From a bacterium (lineage in GTDB: Bacteria > Patescibacteriota > Microgenomatia > Levybacterales > UBA12049): 59,726 bases of DNA. Location: contig JAJXYH010000045.1 in NCBI GenBank assembly GCA_021780675.1, positions 1 through 59,726 of the forward strand, given 5' to 3'. Shown in pieces: positions 7,141-57,242 of the stretch. Position 1 is the stretch's first letter. Every line of letters starts with the position of its first letter. A program made the position numbers and the translations under genes. The notes under the pieces were generated by a model. That model worked only from the letters and a program-made list of their open reading frames with translations. It did not search any database and was not told the DNA's origin.

Positions 7141-7238
7141 TTTTAAATACGAAGTATTTAAGTTTCGAGGTTAAATATAGACAGAGTAAATATTAACCTA
7201 ATAAATTCGATCCTAGTATTTTATCAATTTTAAACCAA

Positions 7239-10610: not shown

Positions 10611-10620
10611 AAATTTTTAC

Positions 10621-11940
10621 TTAGGCGGAGAAGGCAGGCTTGAAAACCAAAGCTAAATTCTTTGTTATTAGCCTTTCATAAATTAAACCCAAGTGATCAA
10701 AACTTCTCTCCAAACCTAAGGCTTTACTAAATTTTACCATTTTTTTGTGGGTTTGTGCTTTACTTACATTTTCAATTGTATTAATTAGGCTTTGCGCGTT
10801 AAGATCAAAAGTAACATCCGATGGTTTAAGTCCAGCATAATCTAATGATTCACTTACGTCTTTTGAATTTAAAAATCCGGCCAATTTCTCAGACACAATA
10901 AATGGTTTGCTATGGGACAAGGCTAAGGATAATGGTCCGGAAGAAGACATAAAAGTCCTATATGGAAAAACTACTAAATCCGACGCATTATAAATAGGTG
11001 TAATATCTTTTTCGTCAACAAACCCGGTCATGATTATATTTTTGGATTTTCCGGCCTTTTTATAAACCCTGTTTAAAAACTTTTGATAATGCGCTTTTTT
11101 CTCTTGAGTAAAGCTTGGTCCACCGGCAATAACCAACTTAATATTTTTGTTGTTTAAGGTGCTTACTTTGCTTAAAGCATCAATTACAAAATCAACACCT
11201 TTATACCAGGTAAGGTAGCCAAAGTACAAAACCACAAAGTCATTTTTGGTAATTCCCAATTTTTTCTCCATCTGCCTTTTTTTATACTCGTTATTATGAA
11301 TATTAAAGTCAACGCCGTGGGGAATTGCTGTAACTTTTCCTTTGGCGGTTACGCTTTCTAATCTTTGTTTAAACTCGTCTTCAGTTACGACAATGTTTCG
11401 GGTAGGTAAAGTCAAAACTTTATAAAACCATTTAAGACCAAAATTCAAAATATAGGTTTTCGAATTCTTGGAAGATACTCCAATGTGTCCTGCAATTTTA
11501 CTTAAGTCAAATAAAACCTGGTGGACAACCATTGTAATGTCCTTTCCCATAAACCTTAAAGCCCAGGTTAGGGGTGCAATCATACTGGTAGCAATAGTGT
11601 TTCCATACGAAGCAAACTCAAATTCAATTACAGTTTCTTTAACTTTATTAAATATAAGCGCGTTTTTAACAATATTTACAAAAGTGAAAGGCTTATTTCT
11701 TTCAAAACATCTTACAACAAGCATTCCGTCCTCTTCGTAGACCTCGGGTTTTCCCAAGGTCATAGTGAGAATAATGACTTTTTTGTCAGGGTTATGTGCT
11801 TTTATTCCTTCCAAGGTGTTTTTGGTAAAAGAAGACACGGCACAAACACCCTTACTGTAGGTTTGCTTTTTTCTTGGGTAACTGGCTACAACGAGTAGCG
11901 AGTTACTGTTATTATACTTATTTATTAATTTATTTTTCAT
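10621..11940 (-). CDS. Glycosyltransferase family 4 (GT-B)
   Basis: IPHGVD, LYFGYLTWYKGVD, GFVDEKD..YNASDLVVFPY, SGPLSLA. Confidence 0.9.
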   Translation of the reverse strand: MKNKLINKYNNSNSLLVVASYPRKKQTYSKGVCAVSSFTKNTLEGIKAHNPDKKVIILTMTLGKPEVYEEDGMLVVRCFERNKPFTFVNIVKNALIFNKVKETVIEFEFASYGNTIATSMIAPLTWALRFMGKDITMVVHQVLFDLSKIAGHIGVSSKNSKTYILNFGLKWFYKVLTLPTRNIVVTEDEFKQRLESVTAKGKVTAIPHGVDFNIHNNEYKKRQMEKKLGITKNDFVVLYFGYLTWYKGVDFVIDALSKVSTLNNKNIKLVIAGGPSFTQEKKAHYQKFLNRVYKKAGKSKNIIMTGFVDEKDITPIYNASDLVVFPYRTFMSSSGPLSLALSHSKPFIVSEKLAGFLNSKDVSESLDYAGLKPSDVTFDLNAQSLINTIENVSKAQTHKKMVKFSKALGLERSFDHLGLIYERLITKNLALVFKPAFSA

Positions 11941-36944: not shown

Positions 36945-37496
36945 ATGGAACAAACATTAGTCATATTAAAGCCGGATGCAGTAAAAAGAAATTTGATGGG
37001 TGAAATTATCACCAGATTTGAAAAAGTAGGCCTAAAATTGGCTGCAGTAAAGCTTGTTACTGCTAAAAAAGAGATTGTAGATAAGCATTATCCAAAAGAC
37101 AGAGATGAACTTTGGTTTGGAATTGGCAACAAAACACTAGAAAACTACGAAAATTTAGGTATGGACCCAATAGAAAGTCTTGGAACCTCGGATCCAAGAG
37201 AAATCGGTAAAATGGTCAGAGTGTGGCTTATGGATTACATAATGCAGGGACCTGTTTTAGTAATGGTTTTAGAGGCGCCACACGCGGTAGAGTTGGTTAG
37301 AAAATTAGCGGGGCATACCTTGCCTTTGCTTGCCGCACCAGGAACAATAAGAGGGGATTACGCTTACGATTCATCTTATCTTGCAAACAGTAACAAAAGA
37401 GCAATCGAAAACTTAGTACACGCATCAGGAACTGTTGAGGAAGCTAAATATGAAATACCACTTTGGTTTACTCCTTCGGAGATTCATTCTTACTAG
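36945..37496 (+). CDS. ndk: Nucleoside diphosphate kinase
   Basis: TLVILKPDAVKR, PGTIRGD, NLVHAS catalytic His. Confidence 0.95.
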   Translation: MEQTLVILKPDAVKRNLMGEIITRFEKVGLKLAAVKLVTAKKEIVDKHYPKDRDELWFGIGNKTLENYENLGMDPIESLGTSDPREIGKMVRVWLMDYIMQGPVLVMVLEAPHAVELVRKLAGHTLPLLAAPGTIRGDYAYDSSYLANSNKRAIENLVHASGTVEEAKYEIPLWFTPSEIHSY

Positions 37497-37914
37497 TTGT
37501 TTTTCTGACTTTAAAATCTAAAAAGGCCAATATTAGTATTCCCGTAGAAATAGCCTCGCTTGTTAAGCAATATTGGCAAAAAGCATGTAAAATACCGGCT
37601 TGAATATATAATAATACGAGCGAAACCAAAAAACCGATCATCGAAAGACCATAAAAAAGGTAGGTAAATAGTTTTTTATAATTTGTCAAAATAAGAACGC
37701 AAAGCAAAACCACTCCTAAATAAAACAGACTTCCAAGCAATGCAACAGGTACGGGACCGATTTTAGAATAAGCACTGGTTAAAACTGTTTCACACCCGCC
37801 GGTTACGCTGCAGGGAGGTATTATATGTCTAAAATCTAAGATGGTAAGGTAAGTAGCCAAGAAAAAACCTAAAAATCCTAAAACTAAAGAACTAATCACC
37901 AGTTTGTTTTTCAT
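37468..37914 (-). CDS. Vitamin K epoxide reductase (VKOR) family protein (start probably 37914)
   Basis: CSVTGGCETVLTS loop cysteines and CQYC in TM. Confidence 0.93.
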   Translation of the reverse strand: MKNKLVISSLVLGFLGFFLATYLTILDFRHIIPPCSVTGGCETVLTSAYSKIGPVPVALLGSLFYLGVVLLCVLILTNYKKLFTYLFYGLSMIGFLVSLVLLYIQAGILHAFCQYCLTSEAISTGILILAFLDFKVRKTTSKNESPKE

Positions 37915-37918
37915 AAAA

Positions 37919-38677
37919 TTACTGTTTAGGCGTTGGAGTAGCGGCTTGTTTAATCGCTTCGTCAATTAATTTTTGGAATTCTTCAATACTTGAAGGATTA
38001 TTAATTTCCTTTCCGTTTATAAAGAATGTTGGAGTATGGTCTAAACCTTCGCTTAAAGCCTGCTGTTCGGAATCGTTTACGTACTTTACTGCCTCCTGGG
38101 ATGTCATATCTTTATTAAATTGGGTAACGTTTAGTTTTAGCTTCTTGGCGTATTCTAAAAATACAGGTTTTGGGTCCTGTAAATTTGCCCAGTCGTTTTG
38201 ATTGTTATAGAGTAAATCATCGTAATTAAAAAATGCACCCTGTTTATTAGCTGCATAGGCTGCCTGTGCGCTGATGTGAGAATTAGGATGAATGTTGGTT
38301 AGTGGGAAGAATCTGTAAACATACAGCATTTGATTTTTGTATTTATCTACCAGTTGGGTAATTAGAGGGTGGTAGGCGGCGCATGCCGGGCATTCAAAGT
38401 CCGCCCATTCGGTTAAGGTTACTTTTGGATTTTTAGCTCCTTCGGAAATATCTTTAGAAGTTGTGGGCGCTGTTGTTAGTGATCCGGCTTGTGGGGCAGC
38501 AGGTTGGCTAACCAGCCACATAAGACCTCCGACTGCAAAAATAATTACTGCTACGACTGATGCCCAAATGGAGTATTTCTTAATAGTTTCGTTCTTTTTT
38601 TCCGACTTTGCTTTTTCTTCCCACTCGAGTTTTCGGAGGGCTTTTTTCTCGTCTTTTGTAAGTTTTCCTTCCGTCAT
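37919..38677 (-). CDS. Membrane-anchored DsbA/BdbD-like thiol-disulfide oxidoreductase (start probably 38677)
   Basis: DFECPAC, FFPL..IHPNS, TPTFFING; N-terminal TM. Confidence 0.93.
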   Translation of the reverse strand: MTEGKLTKDEKKALRKLEWEEKAKSEKKNETIKKYSIWASVVAVIIFAVGGLMWLVSQPAAPQAGSLTTAPTTSKDISEGAKNPKVTLTEWADFECPACAAYHPLITQLVDKYKNQMLYVYRFFPLTNIHPNSHISAQAAYAANKQGAFFNYDDLLYNNQNDWANLQDPKPVFLEYAKKLKLNVTQFNKDMTSQEAVKYVNDSEQQALSEGLDHTPTFFINGKEINNPSSIEEFQKLIDEAIKQAATPTPKQ

Positions 38678-38720
38678 TTTTATATGTTCGCACTTCAGCG
38701 AAAATTTTTCAAGTAGTAAT

Positions 38721-39482
38721 TTATTTAGGCTCTGCAAATACCAATAACCTCTGGAATGTAGTGCCGGGCGGCCAGCAGGTTTGCAAAATTAACTGTTCTT
38801 TATTTTGATTTTTAGCGTTTACAATATAGGAAACGTCCGACGGGTCAACAATTTTAGAACCCGTCATTATATAGTTATGTCTCTTGCCCTGGAAAAAAAT
38901 AACAATTTCATCACCCTTTTGTAAGTCTTTAAGCAGATAAAATACTGCGTTGTAGCGCCCGACGTCCCAGAAGTTGTCGGTTGAGTGGGCAAAAAGATAT
39001 ATATTTCCTTTCATGCCAGGGAAAACCGTTCCTTTGGCGTGTGCAACGCCTTTTTGTAGAATTGGCAGGAAATCGTTCGGATTTGAAGGGTCTACATTAG
39101 GGTAAATTTTTGCATTTGCCCCGATTGCAGGAATTAAAATACTAAAATTAGTGTCAACAGGTGTTAAGACTTGCTCTTTGGGTCCGGTTAAAACCGCAGC
39201 AAAATTATCTATACCGCTTGATTGCTGGGGAACGGGTGTTGGTATTGGTGTTGGGGTGTACTGTGGAGGCGGTTGACCGGGAATAAGTGTTGGAGTGATT
39301 AAAGGAGCCGCGTGCGCTGTAGCAACAATATATCTGACACCTCTTGCGTTAGCAACATGAAGCGCAAGTTCATAATAAAGCGCCGGACCAAAGGTTGCCA
39401 AAATACCAAAGATTGCAAAAAGTACTAAAAAATTACCAATGGTTCTTAAGACTAAAAATCGGAGGATTTCAGATTTATTCAC
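38721..39482 (-). CDS. Sortase
   Basis: Catalytic triad pattern FAHS, LQTCWPPG, RLLV; N-terminal TM; GVAH..GT. Confidence 0.92.
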   Translation of the reverse strand: MNKSEILRFLVLRTIGNFLVLFAIFGILATFGPALYYELALHVANARGVRYIVATAHAAPLITPTLIPGQPPPQYTPTPIPTPVPQQSSGIDNFAAVLTGPKEQVLTPVDTNFSILIPAIGANAKIYPNVDPSNPNDFLPILQKGVAHAKGTVFPGMKGNIYLFAHSTDNFWDVGRYNAVFYLLKDLQKGDEIVIFFQGKRHNYIMTGSKIVDPSDVSYIVNAKNQNKEQLILQTCWPPGTTFQRLLVFAEPK

Positions 39483-44983: not shown

Positions 44984-45910
44984 TTAAGATTTAGCAGGAT
45001 ACCTTTTAAATTTCTTTCTATATAATACTACTAGCGCTGCAAGCAAGACAATCAACCCAAGAGTTTTTATAAAGTCCATTCCTCCCATGGAAAAGAACTT
45101 GATGCTTTGCGATAGCTTTTGATTGGTTTTACCAAAATGTATGCTTAGCTTGGCTGTATACGTGCCGGGGATAAGTACCTTCTGGTAAGTCGTTGAAGTA
45201 ATAGTATAACTTCTAATGCTTTCGGGAAGTGCATCCAGCGAATTTTCGTTAACTATCCCTTTTGCCACCAGGTTTCCAAACGGGTCGTAAACTATAACCG
45301 TGCCGTAGGGAATAACGTGTACATTGCCGCTGTTTTGAAATCTTAGCAAAAACGAGTCGGGGTAGTCGTAGTTGTCTCTTAGCGGTTCAAACGAAAATAT
45401 TTTTCCATCTTCTACTTCTTTTCCGGTTGATGCCCTTACAAACAAAAGACTCGAGAGTACCGCTTTGATGCCAATATTTTGAGAGCTGGCCTGTTGGGCG
45501 ATTTCTGCCAAAATGCTGGCGTAGTGTCCGCCTTTGGTTATCCTGTTTTTATCTATATAAATTTTCACGGACTTTTTTTCGTGTGGAGCAAGTTCTAAGG
45601 TTTTAGTTTCGAATGAAATCCAAGAGGACAGTGAGTATTTATAATTTTGCGCCTTGGGCGCGTCCAAAAACTCCAGCTTATAACTGTCTTCAAGTTCCGT
45701 AAAGTCTTTGGCGCTTAAGGTTATGGTAATGTCTGTATCGAAATTATTTACATATGTTAATTCGTACTCCGGCGGATCAACTGCAAGGTCGATGTGGGCA
45801 ATTGAAGGGGTCACAGACACGCCTTTTGAAGTAGTTTGGGCATCTACGGCATGAGTAAGTAACAAGGCTAAAAAGAGACTAATAACAAGGCTAAAAACAA
45901 GTTTTTTCAT
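44984..45910 (-). CDS. DUF916/DUF3324-like (WxL-interacting type) membrane-anchored protein, copy 2
   Basis: Signal peptide, VSVTPS, GGHYASI, FQNSGNVHVIPYG, PGTYTAKL, C-terminal TM + RKKFK. Confidence 0.65.
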   Translation of the reverse strand: MKKLVFSLVISLFLALLLTHAVDAQTTSKGVSVTPSIAHIDLAVDPPEYELTYVNNFDTDITITLSAKDFTELEDSYKLEFLDAPKAQNYKYSLSSWISFETKTLELAPHEKKSVKIYIDKNRITKGGHYASILAEIAQQASSQNIGIKAVLSSLLFVRASTGKEVEDGKIFSFEPLRDNYDYPDSFLLRFQNSGNVHVIPYGTVIVYDPFGNLVAKGIVNENSLDALPESIRSYTITSTTYQKVLIPGTYTAKLSIHFGKTNQKLSQSIKFFSMGGMDFIKTLGLIVLLAALVVLYRKKFKRYPAKS

Positions 45911-45947
45911 CCTACCTCATAATAGCATAATTTGATATCATAACCCT

Positions 45948-46538
45948 ATGAGAAAGTTTGTTATACTTATTTTGGCAATATTTATAGTTATAACTTCAAT
46001 TATTGCTTACTTTATGTTAACAGCGCCTCCCAAACAGATGTCGGAGGCCGAAAAAGAAGCCAAACTTGTCCAAATTTTAGGCAGGAAGCCGAATTTAACC
46101 GATACAACTCCCAAAGGAGGTACCCTTTATAAAGGGAAGTATGTAAGTTTTACGTATCCTGCAGCTGGTAAAATTTATACTTATAAAGATCCCAGTTTAA
46201 GGCAGGATACATCGGTACTGGAAACTTTTTCTTTTGATATCCAAAACCCAAGGCTTACCTTAAATTATTCGACGATTGACAGGTCTAACCTTTCGGGCTT
46301 AGAAGATATTCCGGATGTTAAGCTTAGACAACTTCCTTCAAGTGGTTATATTCAACAAGATGTTACAGCAGACGGTGTAAATGGCCTTTCTTTTGAAAAA
46401 CAAGATCAACAAATTGAAATGACAGCCTTTTTCTTTAAAAATAATAAGCAATATTCGATTTCTATAACCGGAATTAACAATAAAGATGTAGAAAAGTTGT
46501 TTTATGAGGTAATTTCCAGCCTTAAGTTTACTCCTTAA
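45948..46538 (+). CDS. Membrane-anchored protein, PsbP/DcrB-like fold suspected
   Basis: N-terminal TM; YVSFTYP, VTADGVNGLSF, NKQYSISITG pattern. Confidence 0.55.
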   Translation: MRKFVILILAIFIVITSIIAYFMLTAPPKQMSEAEKEAKLVQILGRKPNLTDTTPKGGTLYKGKYVSFTYPAAGKIYTYKDPSLRQDTSVLETFSFDIQNPRLTLNYSTIDRSNLSGLEDIPDVKLRQLPSSGYIQQDVTADGVNGLSFEKQDQQIEMTAFFFKNNKQYSISITGINNKDVEKLFYEVISSLKFTP

Positions 46539-47583
46539 GCTTTTTCTTGACTTCGCGGTTAATGTAGGATTTTAATAAGTATCTGATCACTAGTACAAGT
46601 AAAATTATGACTATGGCGATTACAGCCAGCGCTTTGTAGGGAATTACCCAGAAATTTATGGATTTTTCTAAGGAAACGTCTTTTGTGCCGTCGTCGTATA
46701 CAACAATCAGGTCTGCTGTGTACTTTCCAACGCGGAAACTGGTCAATTTATTCCAGTTGATCTGCAAAGTTTTGACTTGCTTGCCGTTTTTATCAAGCTT
46801 GGGTTGTCCGTTTTCCATTACCGGAACATATACTAAAAAGCCGTCGCTCCAGCTAACATCAAAAATTCGTTTGGTCGAAGGAATAATGTTTCCTGAACCC
46901 GGATTAAAGTCGATTGCAGCAATATTTTTATTGGTCCCGCTTGAAATAAAGATATTTCCATGGGGTAAGATATGCACGTTTCCGGAATTTTGTAGTACTA
47001 CTTTAAAGTCAACAGGTAAATATTCGCTAACATAGTTTGAGGTGGAAAAATCAACTATTTTAGCCTCTGCTTTTGCCCCGGCTTTTCTTACGTCAAGTAG
47101 TACTGGAATTGCTGCAGCTCCTGTTATTGCAGTGCCGGTTGTTTTAAGCGATGATCCTGTGTCTTGGGTAAAGGAAATTGCAAAGTAGTATCCATAAGCG
47201 GCGTCTTTAGGAATAGTAATAGTAAAAGGAATATCTGTCCATTCCAGTGGTTTTGCAACAAAAGTATTGCTTTCAAACTTAAACCAAGTGAGTGAATTAT
47301 CACTGGATGTGTCTTTTAATGTTAAATCTCCGTTTGCATCGCCGGTCATTTTTTTAACCTCAAGCTTTATAGGAAGCGGGGAAGTAGTATTATTCCTTAT
47401 CCTTATTTTGGTGTTAATCGTATCTCCCGGGTTTGCAGAAAGGTCTAAAAATACAGGAGAAACCGTAACGTCGTAATTAGCCGGAGTTGGAGATTGGGCA
47501 AAAGAGGTTTTTAAAACAATGAAAAGACCACCTAAACTTAGGATGAAAATGAGCAGTGCTAATCGTTTTTTCCCATATTTCAT
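46528..47583 (-). CDS. DUF916/DUF3324-like (WxL-interacting type) membrane-anchored protein, copy 1
   Basis: VTVSPVFLDLSANPG, AAYGYYFAI, LQNSGNVHILPHG, VGKYTADL, C-terminal TM + basic tail. Confidence 0.7.
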   Translation of the reverse strand: MKYGKKRLALLIFILSLGGLFIVLKTSFAQSPTPANYDVTVSPVFLDLSANPGDTINTKIRIRNNTTSPLPIKLEVKKMTGDANGDLTLKDTSSDNSLTWFKFESNTFVAKPLEWTDIPFTITIPKDAAYGYYFAISFTQDTGSSLKTTGTAITGAAAIPVLLDVRKAGAKAEAKIVDFSTSNYVSEYLPVDFKVVLQNSGNVHILPHGNIFISSGTNKNIAAIDFNPGSGNIIPSTKRIFDVSWSDGFLVYVPVMENGQPKLDKNGKQVKTLQINWNKLTSFRVGKYTADLIVVYDDGTKDVSLEKSINFWVIPYKALAVIAIVIILLVLVIRYLLKSYINREVKKKLKE

Positions 47584-47584
47584 A

Positions 47585-48652
47585 TCAGAACGATCCTGCG
47601 GCAGTAATTGTTAGTGTATCTGAATAGTCATTTGCAGCTGTTTGAGTGGCTGGGATTTTAGCTCTTGCATTAATTGTTACAGTGTCTCCGGCTGTTGGCG
47701 CAGTATTTGATGCCATTTGCTGGAATAAGGTTGTACTTACTCCTCCGGAGGTTGTATTAGTTCCGTTATACGCCGTTGCAATAGTTGGTGCTCCTGTTCC
47801 CGAATCGGCATCAATAACATAACCGGTGGTTGTTGCAAGGTCGTATACAGTTCCATAAGTCCCTGTTGGTACAGAAATATCAGCATTAGCTACTGTTGAA
47901 TGTAGTGCACCGAGCGTTGTTGTTCCTTGAGCTCCTTTTATCCAGGAGACCCAACCGTTTCTGGCGTTTGTACCAACTGTTTCGGTAACATTCCCCGATG
48001 AAACAGTGCTGGTTGAAAGTGTGCCGAGGGCAATAGAATTACCACTTAAGGAAAATGTCATAGTTGCTGAGACAGAGGCTGATACCGTAACTTGTTCTCC
48101 GCCTGAGGAAACGATTGATGCAGCCCAATTTAGCTGATCTGTGTATGGTGCGCCACCCAATGTTTCAAGCTCTCCATTTTGATTATTTCCCGCAGGACCA
48201 ATAGTTGAGGATGCTCCTGTAAAATTAAAGCAATAAAAATTACCTGCTACAAACGATGTTGTTGGGAAGGTTACAGAAAGTCCATTGACGCTGGTTGCGG
48301 TACCGATTCCCGGCCAGGCTGTTGCAGCTCCACCTCCAGAAGGGTCTGTTGGTAAGTTAGTAGTCGTAGTTGTCCAGTTGGATGCTGTACTGGAAATGAT
48401 CCAGCCTTGAGGAAATACGATAGTTGTTGCAGTTTGGGTGGTTAATGTGGATTTAAGACAAGCTGTACCGGAAATAGCTTGTCCAGTTGAAAGTCTGTCT
48501 AGTCTTACAAAGCCCTCCGTTACGGTCGCGTTAGCTAATTGTGGTTGAAGTAAAGGGTAGAGAACTAAAAGCAAAAGTGAAATATTTAAAACAACGCTCA
48601 ATAGAACTCTGGGATTTTTTAAATTATTTACTTTAATTTTGGGAAATTTCAT
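47585..48652 (-). CDS. Secreted Thr-rich protein with C-terminal WxL-like domain (small)
   Basis: Signal peptide; TNARNGW; ends ANDYSDTLTITAAGSF. Confidence 0.7.
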   Translation of the reverse strand: MKFPKIKVNNLKNPRVLLSVVLNISLLLLVLYPLLQPQLANATVTEGFVRLDRLSTGQAISGTACLKSTLTTQTATTIVFPQGWIISSTASNWTTTTTNLPTDPSGGGAATAWPGIGTATSVNGLSVTFPTTSFVAGNFYCFNFTGASSTIGPAGNNQNGELETLGGAPYTDQLNWAASIVSSGGEQVTVSASVSATMTFSLSGNSIALGTLSTSTVSSGNVTETVGTNARNGWVSWIKGAQGTTTLGALHSTVANADISVPTGTYGTVYDLATTTGYVIDADSGTGAPTIATAYNGTNTTSGGVSTTLFQQMASNTAPTAGDTVTINARAKIPATQTAANDYSDTLTITAAGSF

Positions 48653-48749
48653 TTTTTACTGCTGTATTTAGCAAACCATTTTTTTGATAGTTTGTCAAGT
48701 ATTACTTAAAGCTTAGAGTAATATTAAATAAAATTTTCATAAAGTGCAG

Positions 48750-50357
48750 CTAGAAGCTACCTGTGGCTATTAGCGAAATAAGATCAGTATAGTCTCCTGC
48801 AGTCGGCGTGGTTGAAGAAGCTTTTGCTTTTAGTTCAAAAGAAGCCTGCCCACCTGTAACAGGAGTGTTGCTGGAATCAGACAAAGTGCGTTTACTTGTA
48901 TCAATAACTCCGACATTATTGCCCGTTCCGGCATATGGTGTATCAAACACCATAGGTCCGCCCGAAGTTTGAGTGGTACTTGTTCCCTGCAAGCCATAAC
49001 CTTCTGAAATGGTTGATAAATCATTAGTTGTGCTATTAATAGTATAGTTTCCGGCACTGATACTTTTTAGACCATTGTTAGATCCGTAAATGTAAATTAA
49101 GCCACCGTTTACAGCGTTAGTGGTAATATTGGTGGTAACTTTATCGGAAGACGTACTTATAGAACCTGGAGTTAAACTTCCTAAATTTATATTAAAAGGT
49201 GGAGTAGATTGACTGGTTGTCTGGACACTAAAAATAAGTGTAGGGTTTGTAGTTGCAGAATTTGCACTTTGACTCCAGAATCCCTGTTGATAAGCACCCG
49301 TTCTTGCCGCCACCCGTGCGTAATAGGTTGTTCCACCGGTTAAACCGATTATGTCAAATCCGGTAGTGCTTCCCCAAAGTGTATAGTTTTGAAAAACAGG
49401 TTTTGTGCCTAATGTATCATCAGCTTGAACGAAATATATGTTTGTACTAAAAGTAGGGTCGGTGGAAACTTGAATTACATATGTGGCATCAGTTGGATTT
49501 GCACCGTTATCGATTACGATATGTAGTTTATTATAGTATCCGGATGGATTAGTAAATATAGGGGCGAGTGGCGTATTTGGTTCAAGAGTATAGGTAAGGC
49601 CAGGAAGAGTTAAGTAATTGGTTGAAGATAGTGAGGCTGTTTCTATTTCGCCTAAAATACCTTGAAACATATAATTTGTTGAGCTTGAGCTGGCGCTTCC
49701 ACCCGCACCAAATCCAAAGTCCAACAATTGGTAATTTGTGCTTACGGGATTAGCTGGAGTTGGTGTCGGTGATGGTGACGGGGTTGGTGTAGGAGCCGGC
49801 GTATAGGTTAAATCGGTTTGACTAGCGGTAACCATTGCAGCTGTACCTCCACCCCCACCCGTTGACCCAAGAGTTGCTACATATTTTATTCTTAAAGCGT
49901 CAATTTGAGTTTTGGTTAGGGAAAGCCCATTCGCAGAAAAAGTATGGTCTGTTAAAGTGCCATTAACTAAATTTACCGTACTCCCAATTTGAACAGTTGG
50001 GTCGGTGCCATCAGTAGAATAATAAACGTCTAAAGTACCGCTTCTTCCCCCTGTTTTATCGGCGCGTACTGTAATTGTCATTGCCGTTACGGTTTGGACA
50101 TCAGCAGGACTTGCTGTGTTGGTATAAACATAAGTTGCGGTCACACCGTTTGGGGTTTGAATATAATTTGTGTCGTTTGGCGAAGTAGTTCCCTCGCTTA
50201 TGCAGCTATATAGATTAGTAGTGCACGTACCTGATGTCCAGTTGGTTGTGGTAATATCTCCGTTTGCATAAATAGTTCCGGAAGCTGCGAACGCTATACC
50301 TCTGAATAAAATTAGAAATATTGCGATATATATTGATATATTACTAAATCTTTTCAT
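48750..50357 (-). CDS. Secreted multidomain protein (PT linker, FN3-like, C-terminal WxL-like domain; large)
   Basis: Signal peptide, PTPTPSPSPTP linker, GLTGGTTYYARVAA FN3-like strand, TNAVNGG, ends AGDYTDLISLIATGSF. Confidence 0.7.
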   Translation of the reverse strand: MKRFSNISIYIAIFLILFRGIAFAASGTIYANGDITTTNWTSGTCTTNLYSCISEGTTSPNDTNYIQTPNGVTATYVYTNTASPADVQTVTAMTITVRADKTGGRSGTLDVYYSTDGTDPTVQIGSTVNLVNGTLTDHTFSANGLSLTKTQIDALRIKYVATLGSTGGGGGTAAMVTASQTDLTYTPAPTPTPSPSPTPTPANPVSTNYQLLDFGFGAGGSASSSSTNYMFQGILGEIETASLSSTNYLTLPGLTYTLEPNTPLAPIFTNPSGYYNKLHIVIDNGANPTDATYVIQVSTDPTFSTNIYFVQADDTLGTKPVFQNYTLWGSTTGFDIIGLTGGTTYYARVAARTGAYQQGFWSQSANSATTNPTLIFSVQTTSQSTPPFNINLGSLTPGSISTSSDKVTTNITTNAVNGGLIYIYGSNNGLKSISAGNYTINSTTNDLSTISEGYGLQGTSTTQTSGGPMVFDTPYAGTGNNVGVIDTSKRTLSDSSNTPVTGGQASFELKAKASSTTPTAGDYTDLISLIATGSF

Positions 50358-50374
50358 ATTAATTTATCTACTTT

Positions 50375-50794
50375 TTAAAGTGGTAAGTAGAAAACACTTT
50401 GCCCAAATAATGTATGTAAGTAATCGTATGTATGAATTTGCGTAATTCCTTTTTTGTTTGCCAAAACCGCTCTTAAACTTTGTGAAAAAGTAAGATCGGT
50501 TGATTTGTAATTAATTAGCGTCTTTAATGCAGCCTTAATGTCACGTTCTTCTGGATAAATAATATTTATGTCCGAAATTGAGACTATTCTTAGAAAGTCT
50601 TTTGCAAGAGATGGGCTAATTTCACTATAAATTTGATTATAAACTTCCAAAAGGGTATAGATATCGGTAAAAAGAGAGTATTTTTCTAAGGCAAAATACC
50701 TAAAATAAGCAGAAGATTGTTCATATTTTTGATGCGCACGATTAACAAAGGCATAAAATGCACTTCCTGAGATGTAGACTTTTTTACTTATCAT
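50375..50794 (-). CDS. VapC-like PIN-domain protein with degenerate active site
   Basis: VYISGSAFYAF, TLLEV, TFSQS, HTYD correspond to VapC DTSAFYAL, E, SFTD, TFD. Confidence 0.72.
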   Translation of the reverse strand: MISKKVYISGSAFYAFVNRAHQKYEQSSAYFRYFALEKYSLFTDIYTLLEVYNQIYSEISPSLAKDFLRIVSISDINIIYPEERDIKAALKTLINYKSTDLTFSQSLRAVLANKKGITQIHTYDYLHTLFGQSVFYLPL

Positions 50795-50878
50795 AAGAAA
50801 TGTTTAACTGCTAAAGTGTATAAAATATCAAATTATGCCGTATTGTCAAGCTAAATTAAAAAATCTACAAAGATTATT

Positions 50879-51160
50879 TTAGCTTGACAAGATAAGACTT
50901 GCGCCCCGGCCTTTTAGTCTGAATAATGGATCATCAAGGGTAAAGGTTTTGGAAGGTTTTAGGCTGTTTTTAAGCACATTTACTTTTTTTGTTTCGTTGC
51001 TAAAGTCCTTATTGAAATCAGTTAAGCTTGATTCTTTAATCCTAATATTTCCACCAGCCTTAATTGCTTTAAGACGTCCCTCTTTTATATAACGACGAAT
51101 TGTTAGGGGGTGTACTTTTAAAATAAATGCAACTTGATTAACGTTAAATAAATTATCCAT
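50879..51160 (-). CDS. Excisionase/MerR-type HTH DNA-binding protein with antitoxin-like tail
   Basis: FNVNQVAFILKVHPLTIRRYIKEGRLKAIK.GGNIRI; C-terminal DDPLFRLKG. Confidence 0.85.
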   Translation of the reverse strand: MDNLFNVNQVAFILKVHPLTIRRYIKEGRLKAIKAGGNIRIKESSLTDFNKDFSNETKKVNVLKNSLKPSKTFTLDDPLFRLKGRGASLILSS

Positions 51161-51178
51161 ATTTTAATAATTTTTTAG

Positions 51179-51332
51179 TTTTCAATTTTTAATTGAAAAT
51201 TTTAAGACCCCAAAAATTTTAAATTGGTTTATATAATTATATACATTATTATGCAATAATATGCAAGTTTATTATATTTTTGACCCATAGCTTTAAAATC
51301 GGTTAAATTAATATTACCTACGGTAATATTAA
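51179..51332. promoter_or_regulatory. Divergent promoter region with three palindromes
   Basis: TTTTCAATT-3-AATTGAAAA (51179-51199), TATATAATTATATA (51230-51243), TTAATATTACC-3-GGTAATATTAA (51308-51332). Confidence 0.55.
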
Positions 51333-53579
51333 ATGCTTGAGCTTAACCTTAAAAAACTTGGATTTTTCACAAGGGTCTTTTTGGCCTTTACGTTAGCCTT
51401 AGTTATATTTTCCCCTTTACTCGTGAAAAATGCAAGTGCGGCAGCCGGGATTAATAGAGTAATAAATTTTCAGGGAAAATTAGTTAATAATCCTTCTGCA
51501 ACAAACGTATCTAATTCGCCCTACACGGTAGTTTTTTCACTTTACGATCAAGCAAGTGGGGGAACTGTATTGTGGTCGGAAACTCAAACTGTAATCACAG
51601 CAGACGGAATTTTTAGGGTAGCGTTAGGTTCGGTTACACCTTTTCCGGCAAATTTTAATTTTAACTGGTCCGGGCTTTATTTAGGCATAAAAGTAGGTTC
51701 GGATTCGGAAATGACACCAAGAATTCAATTGGCATCTGTTCCATATGCGTTTAATGCACAGCAAGTTGCAGGGTTAACAGTTCAGGACGACAGCGGAAAT
51801 GCTTCTACATCGGGAACGCTTCAGGTTGGAAATTCTAAAATCGTAACTTTTAAAGGCTCAAGCGGTTTAACGTTTAATGACCCAGGTGCTTCGGTTACCA
51901 TAAGTTTTCCGACTACAGGAACGCTTACTTTAGTGGATACTTCAACTTCGCAAACTTTAACCGGAAAAACAATCGGAACAGGCGGGTTAACTTTTAATAC
52001 TACGGGAACGGACATTACAACAACTGCTAATCAAAATTTTATAGTTTCTCCAAACGGAACCGGGCTTATCGGTTTTAATACGAATTCACCTTTATCAAGC
52101 ATAGACCTACAAGGAAACCCGGTGACTGGGGGGACGCTGTCCATCGCCTCAGTCTCCGGGCAGACTTCATTTGCTGCGTTTGTAATTGACAATAGTGGAA
52201 GCGGTGATTTATTTACTGCTTCATCTTCCGGAGAAACTAAATTTAATATTGCAAGAAATGGCAATATTACTCTAACCGGAGCGGTTTTGATTAGTGGTTC
52301 AAATGGAAGCGGACAATGTTTAACAGGTGGATCAGCGGTTAAATGGGGTACTTGCGGGGGCGCTCCGCCGGGGGGTTATCCGTTTTTTAATGCGGGGGGA
52401 TACATCATTCAAAATATCACCACTGAAGATTTATTGCTTGGTGGAAACTCTACTTCTACGGCTAAATTTGCCTTTACCGGTCTTGATACGAATCAGACAC
52501 AAGCTTCTTTTTCCGGACAATTTAATTTAATGCCAAATAATGGTTACGGGGGCAATGCATCTATTTCTGCGGGAATGGTTTTGGGGGCGATGATAGGGCC
52601 GGTTATTCAAACTACAGACAATAAGGCTATTATAATCGGAGGAAATACAACCGGAAATATTAATTTTAGTCCTAATAATACTCCAACGATTAATTTATCG
52701 CCAAATACATTGACTTTTGTTGGGGCCGGCATTAGTCAGATTAATACATTAAATAATCAACATTTGTCCATTAATCCCGGTGGAGGTGGTTTTTTGGGAA
52801 TAAATACCGACGGTATAACACCTGTTGCAAACGTTGATATTAGGGGAGATGTCGGGACAATTGCGGTAGCTTCAGTTTCTGGCAAGACCAGCTATGCTTC
52901 ATTAGTTGCAAATAATGATGGGGTGGGAGATATTTTTACAGCCAGCGCCAGCGGCTGGACAAGGTTTACAATCTCAAATTCAGGAAAAGTGACAATAGGT
53001 ACAAGTACTAATGGTTTGACTTTTGATCCTGCAAGCGGTCCAAATTACAACGGGTCCGCACAACCTTTAAAAACAATTATATTATCACCCGAATATGCAG
53101 GGGCAACACTAACTGCTTCGGGCTCGGCAACAACAAATGGTAATATGACCGCCGACGCTTCGCCGTCGGCCAACTTTAGAACTTATTATCAGTGGTCTAC
53201 AACACAAAGCTCAATGCAGGATTATACCGTGGTTGTTAGGGTTACACTTCCAAATGATTTTTCCTCTTGGGATAGTGCCAATGCAATGACAATAGACTTA
53301 GATACCGCAACAACAAATGCGACGCAAAACAAGTTAGATATCCTTGTCTATAATCCAACTTCAAGTACGAGCACGCCGGTTTTAATGCGAACGGCAAATA
53401 CCAGTACATCCGGATATAACTGGAGAACAATTGCAATAACTTCATCTGCATTTACGGGGGGGGCGGCAAAGTGGCAGACGTCAGGTCAAACAGCAGTTAT
53501 TTATTTAAAAATGTATGCTGCCAGCCCTGGCGTAACACAAATCGGAGATATTGTTTTAAATTATTATGCTAAATTCTAA
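51333..53579 (+). CDS. Secreted tail-fibre-like/adhesin protein (748 aa)
   Basis: Signal peptide; INFQGKL...EMTPRIQLASVPYAFNA N-domain; two ASVSG.TS.A...G.GD.FTAS.SG.T.F repeats. Confidence 0.7.
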   Translation: MLELNLKKLGFFTRVFLAFTLALVIFSPLLVKNASAAAGINRVINFQGKLVNNPSATNVSNSPYTVVFSLYDQASGGTVLWSETQTVITADGIFRVALGSVTPFPANFNFNWSGLYLGIKVGSDSEMTPRIQLASVPYAFNAQQVAGLTVQDDSGNASTSGTLQVGNSKIVTFKGSSGLTFNDPGASVTISFPTTGTLTLVDTSTSQTLTGKTIGTGGLTFNTTGTDITTTANQNFIVSPNGTGLIGFNTNSPLSSIDLQGNPVTGGTLSIASVSGQTSFAAFVIDNSGSGDLFTASSSGETKFNIARNGNITLTGAVLISGSNGSGQCLTGGSAVKWGTCGGAPPGGYPFFNAGGYIIQNITTEDLLLGGNSTSTAKFAFTGLDTNQTQASFSGQFNLMPNNGYGGNASISAGMVLGAMIGPVIQTTDNKAIIIGGNTTGNINFSPNNTPTINLSPNTLTFVGAGISQINTLNNQHLSINPGGGGFLGINTDGITPVANVDIRGDVGTIAVASVSGKTSYASLVANNDGVGDIFTASASGWTRFTISNSGKVTIGTSTNGLTFDPASGPNYNGSAQPLKTIILSPEYAGATLTASGSATTNGNMTADASPSANFRTYYQWSTTQSSMQDYTVVVRVTLPNDFSSWDSANAMTIDLDTATTNATQNKLDILVYNPTSSTSTPVLMRTANTSTSGYNWRTIAITSSAFTGGAAKWQTSGQTAVIYLKMYAASPGVTQIGDIVLNYYAKF

Positions 53580-56500
53580 ATTAAAGAAAAAAGTTTTTAT
53601 TTATTTAACAATCTTAAGTTTGTTGCTAAGTTATTCGCCGGTTGGTGTTTATGCTCAAAGTGCAACCAGCTCGTCACATTTAAGCGCAACAGGAACTGAA
53701 GTAAATATTGCATCAGACGCAAGTGCTTCTGGTTCTTTACAAAACAATAATTTCGATGCAAATTATGTTAATTCAACCTTCGTCCCATCTGCAAGCTTTT
53801 CGGGTCCTGATGTTAATTCATTATCTCCCAACTTTGACGCCCCGTCGAATAATCAGCAGCTTTCAACTACGAATAATAGCAATAAGAATTGGACTATTAA
53901 TTCAAAGAAAAATAATTTACAGGCAGACGAAGATTATCAGGTAAATTTGGATAATATTTCTCCTCAAGATGTTAGTGTGCAAATTTACGATCAAAATGGC
54001 AATTTAGTTAATTCAAATTTTAATAAAATTGCAACATCAAACGGAACTTCAATTGATATATCTCCTCCGAGTGCTTTTCGTCCCGGGAAATATACAGTTA
54101 AGATTACCGATACAAGCGGAAACGTTAAACAACAGGACTTTACCTGGGGAGTTTTGGCAATAAATACCGACAAATCAATCTATTTACCAAACGAAACTGC
54201 AAATTTAGCCATGGCGGTTTTAGATAATACCGGAGATATGGTATGTGATGCAAATGTTACCTTAACTATTACCGATCCAAACGGAAAACAAACAGTTCTT
54301 TCAACTTCGGACAATTCAATTATTGTAAATCCTTCATGTCATTTGCATAATTTCACATTAATTCCGGATTACCAAGCGTCTTTTACGGTCGGGGGAGTAG
54401 GAGCTTATCAAATGGACCTTTTGGCCGAAACTACAGACGGTACAAGACAGATTAGTGATTCATTTCAGGTTCAAAATTCAGTAGCTTTTGATATAACAAG
54501 GCAAACCGCGACCAGGATTTATCCTCCCTCGGAATATCCGGTTAACCTAACCGTAAAATTTAATCAGGATTTTAACGGTCAAATTATCGATTATGTTCCT
54601 AATGATTTTAATATATTGCCGTCAAGTAGTTCGGCAGCACCAACATTTGATGTTAAAGAAATTGCAACGCCGGTTAAAAATCAAGATGGAAATTTACAAA
54701 GCTTAAAATTATTACTTCCGTTTAAAGGAACTGTTGATGAAACTTTGGGGTTTGGACAGCATCTTTTGGATCCTAAAGAGCGTGATTATTATGCCCAATA
54801 TGGTTTGGCGGGCCACGACGGATTAGATTTTGCCATGCCGATTGGAACTCCGGTTTATTCAACGGACGACGGAGTGGTAATAATGGCGGGCGGCGAAATT
54901 TATGGAACAACAGTTGTAATTCAACACGGTTGGGGAAGAAGTTACTATGGGCATTTAAGTAAAGTCGAAGTTACTGTTGGACAGAAAGTTTCAAAAGGCG
55001 ATGAAATTGCATTATCGGGAAATACCGGAATAACAACTGGGCCTCATTTGCATTTTGGCATAAAATTTAATCAAAACGATCCAAATAACGGATATTACGG
55101 AAAAACCGATCCTAGTCCTTACCTTGGATTAACACCACAAAATCAAACCGTTGCAACCAACATCAATAACACTGTTAAAGCAATTGTTTGGACAGTTAAT
55201 GCAAGAGCGGGGGACACGCTAAATCTTTCTTATAATTTTAAAATGCCAATGATTAGTCCGATGTTTTACACCATTGGACCCTTGAGTTTTGTTTCCAATA
55301 ATCAAGTAGTTTTTCAGGAAGTACGTAAGTGGCAGTTGGCAGCAGATGCGGCAACAGTAATAATTATTACTTCTTCTTATACCGATCCTTGTGGTAGTAA
55401 TTGTTGGACTGTTCCGTCTGATTGGAATATTACAGGCAGTACTATTGAAGCTGTTGGCGCCGGTGGCGGTGGGGGAAGTGGAACAGCCGGTACAAATACT
55501 GCCGGAAGAGGCGGCGGAGGCGGCGGGGGCGGCGGAGAGTATCGCAAAATTAGTAGTTTTACGACAACTCCGGGAAGCGTAATTCCATTTTCTATTGGAA
55601 TCGGTGGCACAGGAGGTAACGGTGGAAACGGTACTGCAGGAACTGTAACCACTTTTAATACCACCAGTCTTGTAGCAAACGGCGGCGGATTTGGTGGTTG
55701 GAGTAATAGTACTGCGGGTGGTTCGGCAGGTGCAGGCGGAACCGGCGGAACAGGTGCGGCAGCAAACTTTAACGGCGGTGCAGGCGGAGTAGGTGGAGCA
55801 GCTTCGGGAAGTAACGGAGGCGGCGGTGCAGGCGGCGGAGGAGCCGGTGGTACAACTGCTGTTGGTGGAACTGCCGCGAACGTTGGAACTTCAACTACGG
55901 GAACAAATGGAGGCGCAGGAGGAGCAACCAGCGGCGGTTCGGCAGGGACACAACCGGGCGGAACGGGTGGCAATGGAACGGTTTGGACTGATACGACTAC
56001 TTTAGCAACTGGTGGTGCAGGCGGCGGAGGCGGCGGCGGAACAGGAGGAATAAGTGCGGCCGGAACAATTGGCGGAACCGGCGGTAATTATGGCGCAGGC
56101 GGTGCTGGCGGCGGCGGAGGAGGAAAAAAAGGCGCGCTTGGAATGGGAGGAAACGGAATAAATGGAGTAATTGTAATTACTTATACTTCGGTTGCCAATA
56201 CAACGCAGTATGCTTACAGATTCAGAAGCGATGATGGCAATGAAACAACCGGAACATCCTTAGTAGCGCAAAATACGGCAATAACGGGTTTGGCCTTATC
56301 GACAAATATAAGATTAAGGTTTTTAGTTTATAATTCCGGCGGTTCTGCAGCCAGCGCTCAAACTTTCAGGCTGGATTATGCGCCGCTTTCAGGAAGCTGT
56401 TCAACTTCTACATTTGCACCAATCCCAACATCTTCTGGTACAGACCCTTTTTATATGACTACCACTTCTTATTACATTAATGGAACCGCGTCAACTAATG

Positions 56501-56823
56501 TTTCAACCGGACCTGCGGTAATTGCAGATCCAAGCGGAGGAACTTTTATTGCAGGCACTTTGGTTTCGGCTACTTCCAATACCTCGGCCTCGATAATTTT
56601 AACAAGTAAAGGTTTTACTGAAGTTGAGTATAACTTTGCGGCAAACTCAAACGCTGTTGGTGGAAATACATATTGTTTTAGGGTTAGTAATTCAGGTACG
56701 CCGATTAATACATACTCTCAATATGCCCAGGCAACAGTTGCTGGTGGCGGACCGGCAGTGTATCAGTTATTAAGACATGGAGAATGGTTCAGTAACGGAA
56801 TAAGACAACCGTTTACGTTCTAG
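53566..56823 (+). CDS. Giant secreted protein with internal M23 peptidase and glycine-rich domain (1085 aa)
   Basis: Signal peptide; GHDGLD, YYGHL, TGPHLHFG; long GGGGG-rich region; ends LLRHGEWFSNGIRQPFTF. Confidence 0.85.
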   Translation: MLNSKLKKKVFIYLTILSLLLSYSPVGVYAQSATSSSHLSATGTEVNIASDASASGSLQNNNFDANYVNSTFVPSASFSGPDVNSLSPNFDAPSNNQQLSTTNNSNKNWTINSKKNNLQADEDYQVNLDNISPQDVSVQIYDQNGNLVNSNFNKIATSNGTSIDISPPSAFRPGKYTVKITDTSGNVKQQDFTWGVLAINTDKSIYLPNETANLAMAVLDNTGDMVCDANVTLTITDPNGKQTVLSTSDNSIIVNPSCHLHNFTLIPDYQASFTVGGVGAYQMDLLAETTDGTRQISDSFQVQNSVAFDITRQTATRIYPPSEYPVNLTVKFNQDFNGQIIDYVPNDFNILPSSSSAAPTFDVKEIATPVKNQDGNLQSLKLLLPFKGTVDETLGFGQHLLDPKERDYYAQYGLAGHDGLDFAMPIGTPVYSTDDGVVIMAGGEIYGTTVVIQHGWGRSYYGHLSKVEVTVGQKVSKGDEIALSGNTGITTGPHLHFGIKFNQNDPNNGYYGKTDPSPYLGLTPQNQTVATNINNTVKAIVWTVNARAGDTLNLSYNFKMPMISPMFYTIGPLSFVSNNQVVFQEVRKWQLAADAATVIIITSSYTDPCGSNCWTVPSDWNITGSTIEAVGAGGGGGSGTAGTNTAGRGGGGGGGGGEYRKISSFTTTPGSVIPFSIGIGGTGGNGGNGTAGTVTTFNTTSLVANGGGFGGWSNSTAGGSAGAGGTGGTGAAANFNGGAGGVGGAASGSNGGGGAGGGGAGGTTAVGGTAANVGTSTTGTNGGAGGATSGGSAGTQPGGTGGNGTVWTDTTTLATGGAGGGGGGGTGGISAAGTIGGTGGNYGAGGAGGGGGGKKGALGMGGNGINGVIVITYTSVANTTQYAYRFRSDDGNETTGTSLVAQNTAITGLALSTNIRLRFLVYNSGGSAASAQTFRLDYAPLSGSCSTSTFAPIPTSSGTDPFYMTTTSYYINGTASTNVSTGPAVIADPSGGTFIAGTLVSATSNTSASIILTSKGFTEVEYNFAANSNAVGGNTYCFRVSNSGTPINTYSQYAQATVAGGGPAVYQLLRHGEWFSNGIRQPFTF

Positions 56824-56846
56824 TGTGATTAGAAAGGAGGTGAATT

Positions 56847-56933
56847 ATGTTAATAAATGAAATAAAGAGGGAATGGGAAGAATTTGTACAAGTATTTCGA
56901 AATTACCTACTTTTTTTACAGCTCGATCCTTAA
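56847..56933 (+). CDS. Putative 28-aa peptide (MLINEIKREWEEFVQVFRNYLLFLQLDP)
   Basis: Perfect AAAGGAGGTGA SD with correct spacing to the ATG. Confidence 0.4.
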   Translation: MLINEIKREWEEFVQVFRNYLLFLQLDP

Positions 56934-57242
56934 AAACAATTTTGGAATAAGGCATAAAAATTAAGAGTGCCTAGCTAATTACTAATTTAATAGAAGGTTA
57001 AGTATTTTTTAAGGCAGGATTTTTGTTTGCTTGGGGTGTCCTTTGTAAATTTAATTTGTGGTTTAGACAAAGGGCACATATTTCCCGTTGTTCAAAAGCA
57101 ATAATGGCAAAAGAGAAAAAGCTTAATAAATACTAGCCTTGATGGTATAGTATTTTTATGATTTTATTTCTGTTGATAAAATCAAAATTAAAACCAAACC
57201 GATTTGGACGATTTAGTTAAATATATTGTCTAAATAGTTTAA

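Follow-up and report, generated by a model that had tools for sequence, protein, structure and literature searches.

A probable Pam-type pilus locus with a conserved partner fibre gene and a putative built-in regulator in a Microgenomatia genome

The window analysed here is a 59,726-nt contig (JAJXYH010000045.1, assembly GCA_021780675.1) from a Microgenomatia bacterium, and our subject is the region between positions 44984 and 56823, which is filled by nine open reading frames (ORFs) that we label A to I from left to right. We read this region as a chromosomal Pam-type pilus locus of Microgenomatia, within the Candidate Phyla Radiation (CPR), that carries its own regulator beside a conserved partner fibre gene, and put the probability of this reading at roughly 0.7. 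On this reading the locus is a divergent member of the known Pam family, a new example rather than a new machine. A first-pass annotation of the same DNA had proposed a single attachment and penetration apparatus built from both arms of the region and controlled from a central switch; one regulated neighbourhood is plausible, and one physical apparatus from both arms is unsupported.

Pam pili were described from the CPR parasite Ca. Mycosynbacter amalyticus (Troman et al. 2026, PMC13278184). In that preprint, two-domain pilins are joined by a donated linker strand, and the parts of the system are the pilins PamA and PamB, the chaperones PamC and PamD with a C-terminal transmembrane (TM) helix, the tip pilin PamT, PamE and the anchor PamR. 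It also reports homologues in Saccharimonadia and Microgenomatia, notes that pam operons co-localise with tail-fibre-like and ATP synthase genes, and presents Pam as confined to the superphylum CPR. In our own survey, the Pam pilin domain was found in 118 of 401 sampled genomes of the phylum (33 above the cut-off) versus none of 14 control genomes.

Pilins and chaperones of the left arm

Genes D and E encode exported proteins that, judged by sequence comparison, carry a common Pam pilin C-terminal domain. D matches the NCBIfam model NF058581 (CPR_Pam_pilin_C) over model positions 2-148 of 148 with an E-value of 1.9e-5, at 24.8 bits against a cut-off of 55; in a six-frame search of the window's own 960-kb (0.96-Mb) genome it is the sole match, at 27.7 bits, also under the 55-bit cut-off. 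The AlphaFold2 (AF2) model of D has a predicted local distance difference test (pLDDT) score of 86 and contains two beta domains, at residues 45-181 and 198-355. The linker between them is the least confident part of the model (residues 188-194, pLDDT <50), and yet linker residues A192, S193, V194, A196, F200 and L202 are invariant in 66 homologues. To be poorly modelled while among the most conserved parts of the family is the behaviour expected of a strand that packs into another subunit. C65 and C141 are invariant as well. The model of D has weak Foldseek matches to the two-domain tip adhesins FimH, PapG and CupB6, and sequence searches of the PDB with D and E returned nothing significant.

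The C-terminal domain of E is 30% identical to that of D (BLASTP, 2e-8), and E has no direct match to NF058581. Residues 200-535 of E match the PamT model NF058579 at 2.2e-5 (24 bits; cut-off 240), and E orthologues match it with values down to 8.7e-13, over model positions 3-82 of 241 only. The orthologues are 349-380 aa long and their alignment to E begins at residue 197-204; the conserved N-terminal motif also matches the ~250-aa PamT-like proteins of canonical Pam operons. Between its signal peptide and this motif, E has an extra 175-aa beta-rich domain and a PAPTPTPSPSPTPTP linker (49761-50285, E residues 25-200), which occur in this genome only. The extra domain has no family match and may be a tip payload. 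PHROGs offered no fibre family for E or for H.

Two side observations concern pilins elsewhere. Very long ORFs of 2,000-6,450 aa in other CPR genomes include a Pam pilin C domain (for example at G060:C9:273709-274149 and G215:C1:60162-60548, where G-numbers denote genomes and C-numbers their contigs); by analogy, they would recall WxL tip adhesins, with a constant attachment module and a variable payload. Variant pilus operons stand behind the G-F pair in two relatives, at 7090-11438 of the fetched locus L065 (G004) and 3639-7770 of L066 (G024), in the order E', chaperone, pilin, chaperone; their pilins end in PTY, PEY or PIY and were missed by BLAST with D.

A and C are paralogous two-domain chaperones, anchored by a TM helix and homologous both to the chaperones of canonical Pam operons and to DUF916/WxLIP proteins. 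They match each other at 1e-10 (BLASTP); against the canonical chaperones, C scores 1e-14 to 1e-9 and A 2.4e-11 to 1.7e-5, and A is conserved in 13 related loci. In the AF2 model of C (pLDDT 83), two beta-sandwiches are followed by a TM helix at residues 316-350. The best PDB matches of this model by Foldseek are the Enterococcus faecium WxLIP structures 9i1y and 9i25 (1.7e-11), followed by CfaA and CsuC with template-modelling scores of 0.52-0.58, normalised to the target. The family PF06030 (DUF916/WxLIP_PGBD) is annotated on about 45 of 120 C homologues at 54-68% identity. C itself reaches 23.1 bits against this model (gathering score 27.3), A matches WxLIP_PGBD weakly (0.016), and the canonical Pam chaperones match PF06030 weakly over their full length (2.4e-4 to 0.022). 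When the C-family profile was aligned by hhalign with a Vagococcus DUF916/DUF3324 protein, the probability was 90% and the E-value 1.6e-6, the first domain alone being aligned. A sequence search of the PDB with the C-family profile gave nothing significant, DUF3324/WxLIP_HBD (PF11797) had no match at E <0.1 on C or A, and the locus contained neither a PapD_N (PF00345) match nor an usher-sized gene.

Between the two chaperone genes lies B, which has a weak, full-length match to PsbP_2 (0.0053). Its orthologues, present in 7 related loci, are always convergent with a chaperone gene, on the strand opposite to the operon.

The description of the left arm as a filament system with chaperone- or anchor-type proteins and shaft subunits agrees with these results. 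The label 'WxL-like' that the first-pass annotation gave it holds for the chaperones, which are DUF916/WxLIP relatives, but not for the pilins, on which no WxL domain was detected. Homology to WxL systems is claimed for the chaperone only, not membership of the WxL family.

The regulator pair and its putative operator

The gaps of the left arm are short (17 nt between F and E, 1 nt between D and C, and 2 nt between G and F in two relatives), which fits a single transcript. At its head are G and F, the two central genes that had been annotated as a helix-turn-helix (HTH) and PIN pair. The HTH assignment is confirmed above cut-off by two models, HTH_17 (PF12728; 6.7e-10, 39.5 bits, cut-off 27) and TIGR01764 (6.3e-8, 32.9 bits, cut-off 28.8), and there is a weak match to the BldC family (1.2e-4). 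The C-terminal tail of G, DPF/LxRLxGRGASL, is conserved in six orthologues.

The PIN assignment stands in part. Two of six F orthologues match PF01850 at 3e-4, and 5 of 120 homologues have a precomputed PF01850 match, several homologues being named 'predicted nucleic acid-binding protein' by JGI; the window's own protein, however, matches no PIN model. The F family numbers 217 proteins, and its profile has no significant PDB match, the best being VapC26 with an E-value of 0.62. In the alignment with VapC26, the first catalytic Asp is replaced by A, S or G and the third by Q, so that two of the four acids are lost family-wide; E50 of F is variable among orthologues, and the invariant residues of the family are not the catalytic ones. 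With replaced catalytic acids on a PIN-like fold, G-F looks from its sequences like a VapBC-type pair with a dead nuclease. Like VapBC modules, it has the gene order, the sizes, an antitoxin-like tail and a PIN-like fold; unlike them, it has lost the first and third catalytic acids throughout the F family and keeps a fixed position within a surface-structure locus.

The G-H spacer (51161-51332) is exactly 172 bp long with 17% G+C. It had been called palindrome-rich, but its perfect inverted repeats of at least 8 nt number three, the longest 11 nt, which is marginal against 1000 dinucleotide shuffles (P=0.077 for the count, P=0.054 for the length). What holds of the proposed central switch is a conserved cis element, which has the form of a direct-repeat operator and was found by aligning the G-H spacers of relatives. 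Its four units, TATATAAT, TATACATT, TATGCAAT and TATGCAAG, start at 51230, 51240, 51250 and 51260 and have the consensus TAT[AG][CT]AAT. The phased repeat score is 26 of 28, versus a maximum of 21 in 1000 shuffles. All 15 loci with a G gene whose upstream DNA could be read keep the geometry of the array; they come from two families of the order and two metagenome contigs. TTGAC comes 20 nt after the start of the fourth unit in 14 of these and 21 nt after it in one; while the distance to this outward box is fixed, that from the array to the ATG of G ranges from -1 to 475 nt. In the five pilus loci without G-F, the DNA ahead of the fibre gene contains no such array, and the 960-kb genome has no other two TATRCAA motifs on one strand at a spacing of 9-23 nt. 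When the spacers were compared with the same genome by BLAST, no dispersed copies were found. The conserved four-repeat array with its fixed outward -35 box can be described, from its sequence, as an operator-like element that always accompanies the HTH gene.

By analogy, we infer that G binds the array. HTH_17/MerR-like proteins and recombination directionality factors bind direct repeats one helical turn apart as head-to-tail multimers, and Apl of phage 186 binds such repeats between divergent promoters, according to the abstracts of PMC5859096 and PMC7498355. G is like Xis, Apl and BldC-type proteins in its HTH_17/MerR-like fold without an effector domain and in the four 10-bp-phased direct repeats between divergent genes; it is unlike them in having a VapB-like tail and a PIN-like partner. 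With the array placed between the start codon of G and the -35 box that faces the fibre gene, we would expect it to autoregulate the G-F-(E-D-C) transcript and to affect the promoter of the fibre gene.

Two further predicted structures flank G. The perfect stem at the ATG of H is kept in a relative of the same genus (G001), where the loop TAC is changed to GTA. The inverted repeat between G and F forms a strong predicted RNA hairpin (dG -19.6 kcal/mol, z -5.1); the 84-nt G-F spacer that holds it is genome-specific, and this same-genus relative is without the hairpin and has a G-F gap of 13 nt. As a side observation, the G-F spacer of another relative (G003, L037 6942-7388) has a 447-bp insert with inverted GTACC/GTATCAC-rich ends, which by its sequence looks like a small mobile insertion splitting the pair.

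The fibre gene and the M23 giant of the right arm

The right arm consists of H and I. H had been called fibre-like, a description that receives qualified support from weak matches of its N-terminus to Bdello_MAT_N (2e-5; orthologues down to 6.4e-9), a domain resembling the base of the mosaic adhesive trimer fibres of Bdellovibrio. In 13 of the 15 related pilus loci a fibre gene stands next to the operon; these comprise 9 of the 11 genomes with D, together with G004, G024 and two contigs from metagenomes. The fibre N-terminal domain is present in 34 of 41 relatives, against 12 for the D pilin and 15 for F, and most of the relatives without the pilin have fibre genes, which makes fibres a general feature of these genomes. 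A scan of IMG/VR with H found no relative.

The annotation of I as an M23 giant is well founded: Peptidase_M23 matches at 9.9e-28 and 96.6 bits, with the HxxxD and HxH motifs present, and MG2 matches at 6.4e-11. The start of I overlaps the end of H by 14 nt, and we regard I as probably a lineage-variable accessory, translationally coupled to the fibre. Outside the window, the order fibre then M23 giant occurs only in G001, G040 and the near-identical metagenome contigs L074 and L075; in other loci the fibre is longer (1077-3220 aa), or small stand-alone M23 genes are found a few kilobases away. The conserved neighbourhood that had been proposed as a check is seen for the fibre and the pilus operon, but for the giant in those four other loci only. 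The QPFTF tail of I is unique to it in this genome. In the search of the genome, neither H nor I had a Pam pilin C domain, which leaves no ground for predicting that either enters the pilus by strand exchange.

Proposed mechanism

In the mechanism that we propose, the structural proteins would exit the cell through Sec, and the chaperones would donate a strand to hold the incomplete C-terminal immunoglobulin (Ig)-like domain of each pilin. The linker strand of D (residues 187-202, V-x-A-x-M-x-F) would then replace the chaperone strand in the preceding subunit to give a linear filament, with E at the distal end and its extra N-terminal domain exposed as a possible adhesin. G may occupy the four repeats head-to-tail, as Xis, Apl and BldC do. 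Occupancy of the array would repress the G-F-pilus transcript and modulate the fibre promoter, and F, with a PIN fold and an incomplete active site, could act as a co-regulator through the VapB-like tail of G.

Comparison with known pili

The locus is like Pam in its pilin of two domains joined by a conserved strand, the C-terminal one a putative Pam pilin domain, in its two paralogous chaperones with a C-terminal TM helix, in the PamT-like N-terminal motif of E and in the adjacent tail-fibre-like gene. ATP synthase-type genes are also found in the wider neighbourhood (C40:4997-7959), ~20-25 kb from the pilins; three of the four canonical loci with above-cut-off pilins that were fetched adjoin such genes. 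Canonical Pam loci also have a PKD/Ig protein with a C-terminal TM segment. The differences are that the locus has one D-type pilin where Pam has PamA and PamB; that its PamT-like protein is 350-535 aa long and has an FN3-like domain in the middle besides a strand and C-terminal domain of its own, whereas that of Pam has ~250 aa and a single domain; and that the operon is without PamR and has the extra conserved gene B. It is also headed by the HTH_17/PIN-like pair and the repeat operator, whereas the Results, Discussion and figure legends of PMC13278184 name only a lone MazE-like antitoxin nearby.

The elrABCDE WxL clusters build a donor-strand-exchange pilus that is described as confined to Bacillota, with ElrC and ElrD as WxL pilins and the DUF916/DUF3324 protein ElrE as membrane-anchored chaperone (bioRxiv 10.64898/2026.10.17.759780; for WxLIP, PMC10599100 and PDB 9i1y and 9i25). 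Shared with the locus are the membrane-anchored DUF916-type chaperone, the logic of usher-less donor-strand exchange in a single-membrane cell, a donor strand of alternating small and hydrophobic residues ending in Phe, and tip subunits with a variable payload. A Vagococcus WxL cluster, like the locus, has a divergent HTH gene: on plasmid NZ_CP038867.1 (L073 5070-10717) the gene stands directly upstream of a WxL pilin, a DUF916/DUF3324 chaperone and a MucBP protein. Unlike WxL/Elr clusters, the locus has no detectable WxL domain (PF13731), DUF3324 (PF11797) or LPxTG anchor, and its donor strand is internal, after the N-terminal domain, whereas that of WxL/Elr is N-terminal. Neither the Pam nor the WxL/Elr preprint refers to the other system, and a literature search on DUF916 and CPR found no mention of DUF916 in the ten best-ranked papers.

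Classical chaperone-usher pili (Pap/Fim, CFA/I and Csu) share with the locus the CfaA/CsuC-type chaperone fold and pilins that are incomplete Ig-like domains. The locus differs from them in having no usher, outer membrane or PapD_N match, and in tethering its chaperones to the membrane.

A broader proposal can be made only tentatively, as one that we think possible rather than probable: that Pam and WxL/Elr are two branches of one ancient family of usher-less donor-strand-exchange pili around a DUF916 chaperone, and that Microgenomatia recruited a domesticated toxin-antitoxin (TA) pair (HTH_17 and dead PIN), reading a four-repeat operator, to set pilus versus fibre expression.

Weighing the alternatives

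Several observations weigh against a Pam-type locus with a built-in regulator. All matches to NCBIfam Pam models fall below the curated cut-offs (24.8 versus 55 bits for D, 24 versus 240 for E). Foldseek with the model of D, run against a copy of the PDB that held no Pam structure, returned only generic tandem Ig folds, with template-modelling scores of ~0.2. No gene for a PamR-type membrane anchor or terminator was found between 44984 and 56823. As to regulation, three relatives (G035, G005 contig 16 and G021) have a G-F pair with the same operator but without a neighbouring pilus or fibre gene, and the window carries an additional promoter-like site in its G-F spacer.

One alternative is that G-F is an ordinary, selfish, autoregulating VapBC-type module without control of pilus or fibre. 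Its architecture is indeed TA-like, a DNA-binding domain with a tail followed by a PIN-like gene, with the 2-nt gap noted above in two relatives, and the pair can be found without pilus or fibre neighbours; but the F family as a whole has lost two of the four catalytic acids of PIN proteins, whereas other positions in it are invariant, and the pair keeps its place between fibre and pilin across many genera at an identity similar to that of its neighbours. The array is held at a fixed distance from the outward -35 box rather than from the ATG of G, and the stop codon of F is 17 nt from the start of E, all of which leaves a selfish module unlikely. The left arm as the WxL/Elr family proper of Bacillota, present in a CPR genome, is very unlikely. 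Pfam on orthologues, hhalign and Foldseek do identify the chaperone as DUF916/WxLIP, with the same C-terminal TM anchor, and the donor strand, with its alternating pattern and final Phe, is similar to the ElrD consensus (bioRxiv 10.64898/2026.10.17.759780). Against this, PF13731 has no Pfam match on D or E, PF11797 none on C or A, and hhalign of the pilin profile with the Vagococcus WxL pilin (one WxL sequence) gave a probability of 0.1%; the translations show no protein of the locus with a C-terminal LPxTG, TM segment and basic tail, and the pilins have an extra N-terminal domain, as in Pam.

That both arms form one attachment and penetration machine, with a pilus shaft, a mounted fibre and the M23 giant as wall-lytic tip, appears quite unlikely. 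The fibre does stand beside most of the pilus operons (13/15), across one common regulatory spacer, M23 genes lie within ~10 kb of the pilus operon in several relatives, and PMC13278184 reports a tail-fibre-like gene co-localising with pam operons. H and I, however, have neither a Pam pilin C domain nor a donor-strand motif; the arms occur independently (34/41 for the fibre domain versus 12/41 for the pilin), the giant follows the fibre in few lineages, and E already has the position and architecture of a tip subunit. The single apparatus of the first-pass annotation finds no support in these distributions. A prophage tail or tailocin remnant, made up of the right arm and the excisionase-like HTH gene, is the source suggested by PHROGs matches of the M23 domain, the Gly-rich region and the HTH to phage families (tape measure, endolysin, tail fibre assembly and excisionase); we consider it extremely improbable, as H and I begin with signal sequences of the Sec type, genes for an integrase, a tRNA, a capsid or a terminase are absent nearby, the flanks are syntenic housekeeping genes, and H has no IMG/VR relative. 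We retain the reading of the region as a chromosomal Pam-type pilus locus that has its own regulator and a fibre gene as conserved partner.

Gene layout and surroundings

The coordinates of all features are collected in Table 1. The nine ORFs lie where the first-pass annotation had placed them (ORF list and translations), and its spacer length and divergent arms are borne out. So is its statement that all genes but the central pair are exported: judged by eye from the translations, six proteins (A, C, D, E, H and I) open with a basic n-region and a hydrophobic signal-like segment and B with a membrane anchor, giving seven in all, while G and F have no signal-like N-terminus. The C-terminal TM helices of A and C were likewise seen by inspection, for C also in the AF2 model. 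The gene order, with the fibre gene divergent from HTH, PIN-like, E, D, C and A, is conserved across genera.

Table 1. Features of the region (window coordinates; residue numbers for parts of proteins)
Feature	Coordinates	Strand	Description
A	44984..45910	-	308 aa; second membrane-anchored pilus chaperone, PamC/PamD-like, DUF916-related; signal peptide, C-terminal TM helix
B	45948..46538	+	196 aa; small exported protein; N-terminal membrane anchor; weak PsbP_2 match
C	46528..47583	-	351 aa; membrane-anchored pilus chaperone, PamC/PamD-like, DUF916/WxLIP family
D	47585..48652	-	355 aa; predicted major Pam-type pilin; ends AAGSF; NF058581 match
D, parts			N-terminal beta-sandwich ~45-181; linker/donor strand 187-202; C-terminal Pam pilin domain 203-355
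E	48750..50357	-	535 aa; predicted PamT-related pilin; ends ATGSF
E, parts			lineage-specific N-terminal domain ~25-190; Pro/Thr linker; conserved body 204-535
F	50375..50794	-	139 aa; PIN-like protein, degenerate active site, partner of G
Inverted repeat between G and F	50843..50890	-	17-nt inverted repeat; TTGACA / TG-TATTTT promoter-like site facing F
G	50879..51160	-	93 aa; HTH_17 (excisionase/BldC-like) DNA-binding protein; VapB-like C-terminal tail (DPLFRLKGRGASL)
Putative operator-promoter module	51230..51284	+	four 10-bp-phased direct repeats and TTGAC -35-like box at 51280 facing the fibre gene
Stem-loop	51308..51332	+	perfect 11-bp stem-loop ending at the ATG of H; dG -13.1, z -3.4
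H	51333..53579	+	748 aa; exported fibre-like protein, MAT-like N-terminal domain
I	53566..56823	+	1085 aa; exported giant; Ig-like/MG2 domains; intact M23 peptidase 416-504; Gly-rich ~620-860; C-terminal domain, ends QPFTF

The flanks contain MreB, WecG and GalT-like genes, in a synteny that is kept in one relative. Scans for tRNA genes and Rfam families over 40-59.7 kb found nothing, and thus no mobile-element boundary of that kind. A sortase, a DsbA-like protein and VKOR form a trio at 37468-39482 (Pfam), 5.5 kb left of the locus; this local disulfide machinery may serve pilin D, given its invariant Cys pair. Immediately 3' of I is a 419-bp non-coding stretch (56824-57242) that opens with a strong Shine-Dalgarno sequence and ATG (AGAAAGGAGGTGAATTATG), an ORF of ~28 codons, and is otherwise featureless.

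At its right end the window can be extended. Positions 58575-59726 and positions 17350-18186 of contig C40 (L048) hold overlapping halves of one gene, with AKRPDKLTLHN common to both, so the window runs on into C40, read in reverse. This join adds, to the right of I, a 910-aa membrane protein, a second HTH_17 gene and an ATP synthase-type operon. The 910-aa protein is exported (C40 10708-13440, ~7.6 kb from I); its N-terminus copies the N-terminal domain of D up to the start of the donor strand (2e-22), and it has no pilin C-domain and several TM segments at its end. These features make it a candidate for the part of PamR, as base anchor or terminator. In G040, G027, G034, G005 and L076 its homologues are located within 6-17 kb of the pilus operon. 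The 69-aa HTH_17 gene (L048 9500-9709) precedes the gene for the 910-aa protein, and paired ATP-synt_ab genes are found at C40:4997-7959. Besides a set on contig C59, this pair and one on C27 (4459-7453) are two further ATP-synt_ab pairs of the genome, paralogous at ~66% DNA identity, and each is a few kilobases from a fibre-like gene fragment at the start of its contig.

D is 57-63% identical to copies in genomes of a second family, f2 (G040 L032 and G027 L034), versus 36-42% to those of relatives of its own family (L036-L041), a pattern that could reflect lateral transfer, within the order, of the block of pilus and fibre genes. The pilus loci of G040 and G027 are without G-F.

Significance

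Pam pili are host-contact filaments of a cultivated CPR parasite, and their regulation is not addressed in the Results, Discussion or figure legends of the report that describes them (PMC13278184). What the locus adds is a conserved HTH_17/dead-PIN regulator with a readable operator, and a link to WxL/Elr at the level of the chaperone. A predicted regulator, its likely operator and its promoter partner can all be read from the DNA and are conserved across genera, which provides a testable handle. There is a negative lesson as well, in that the attractive picture of one machine with a lytic tip lacks backing from gene distribution. The DUF916 identity of the chaperones ties CPR pili to the WxL/Elr pili, for which genetics and structures are available in enterococci and lactobacilli, and the link would recast both pili, from lineage oddities to a general pilus pathway of single-membrane bacteria.

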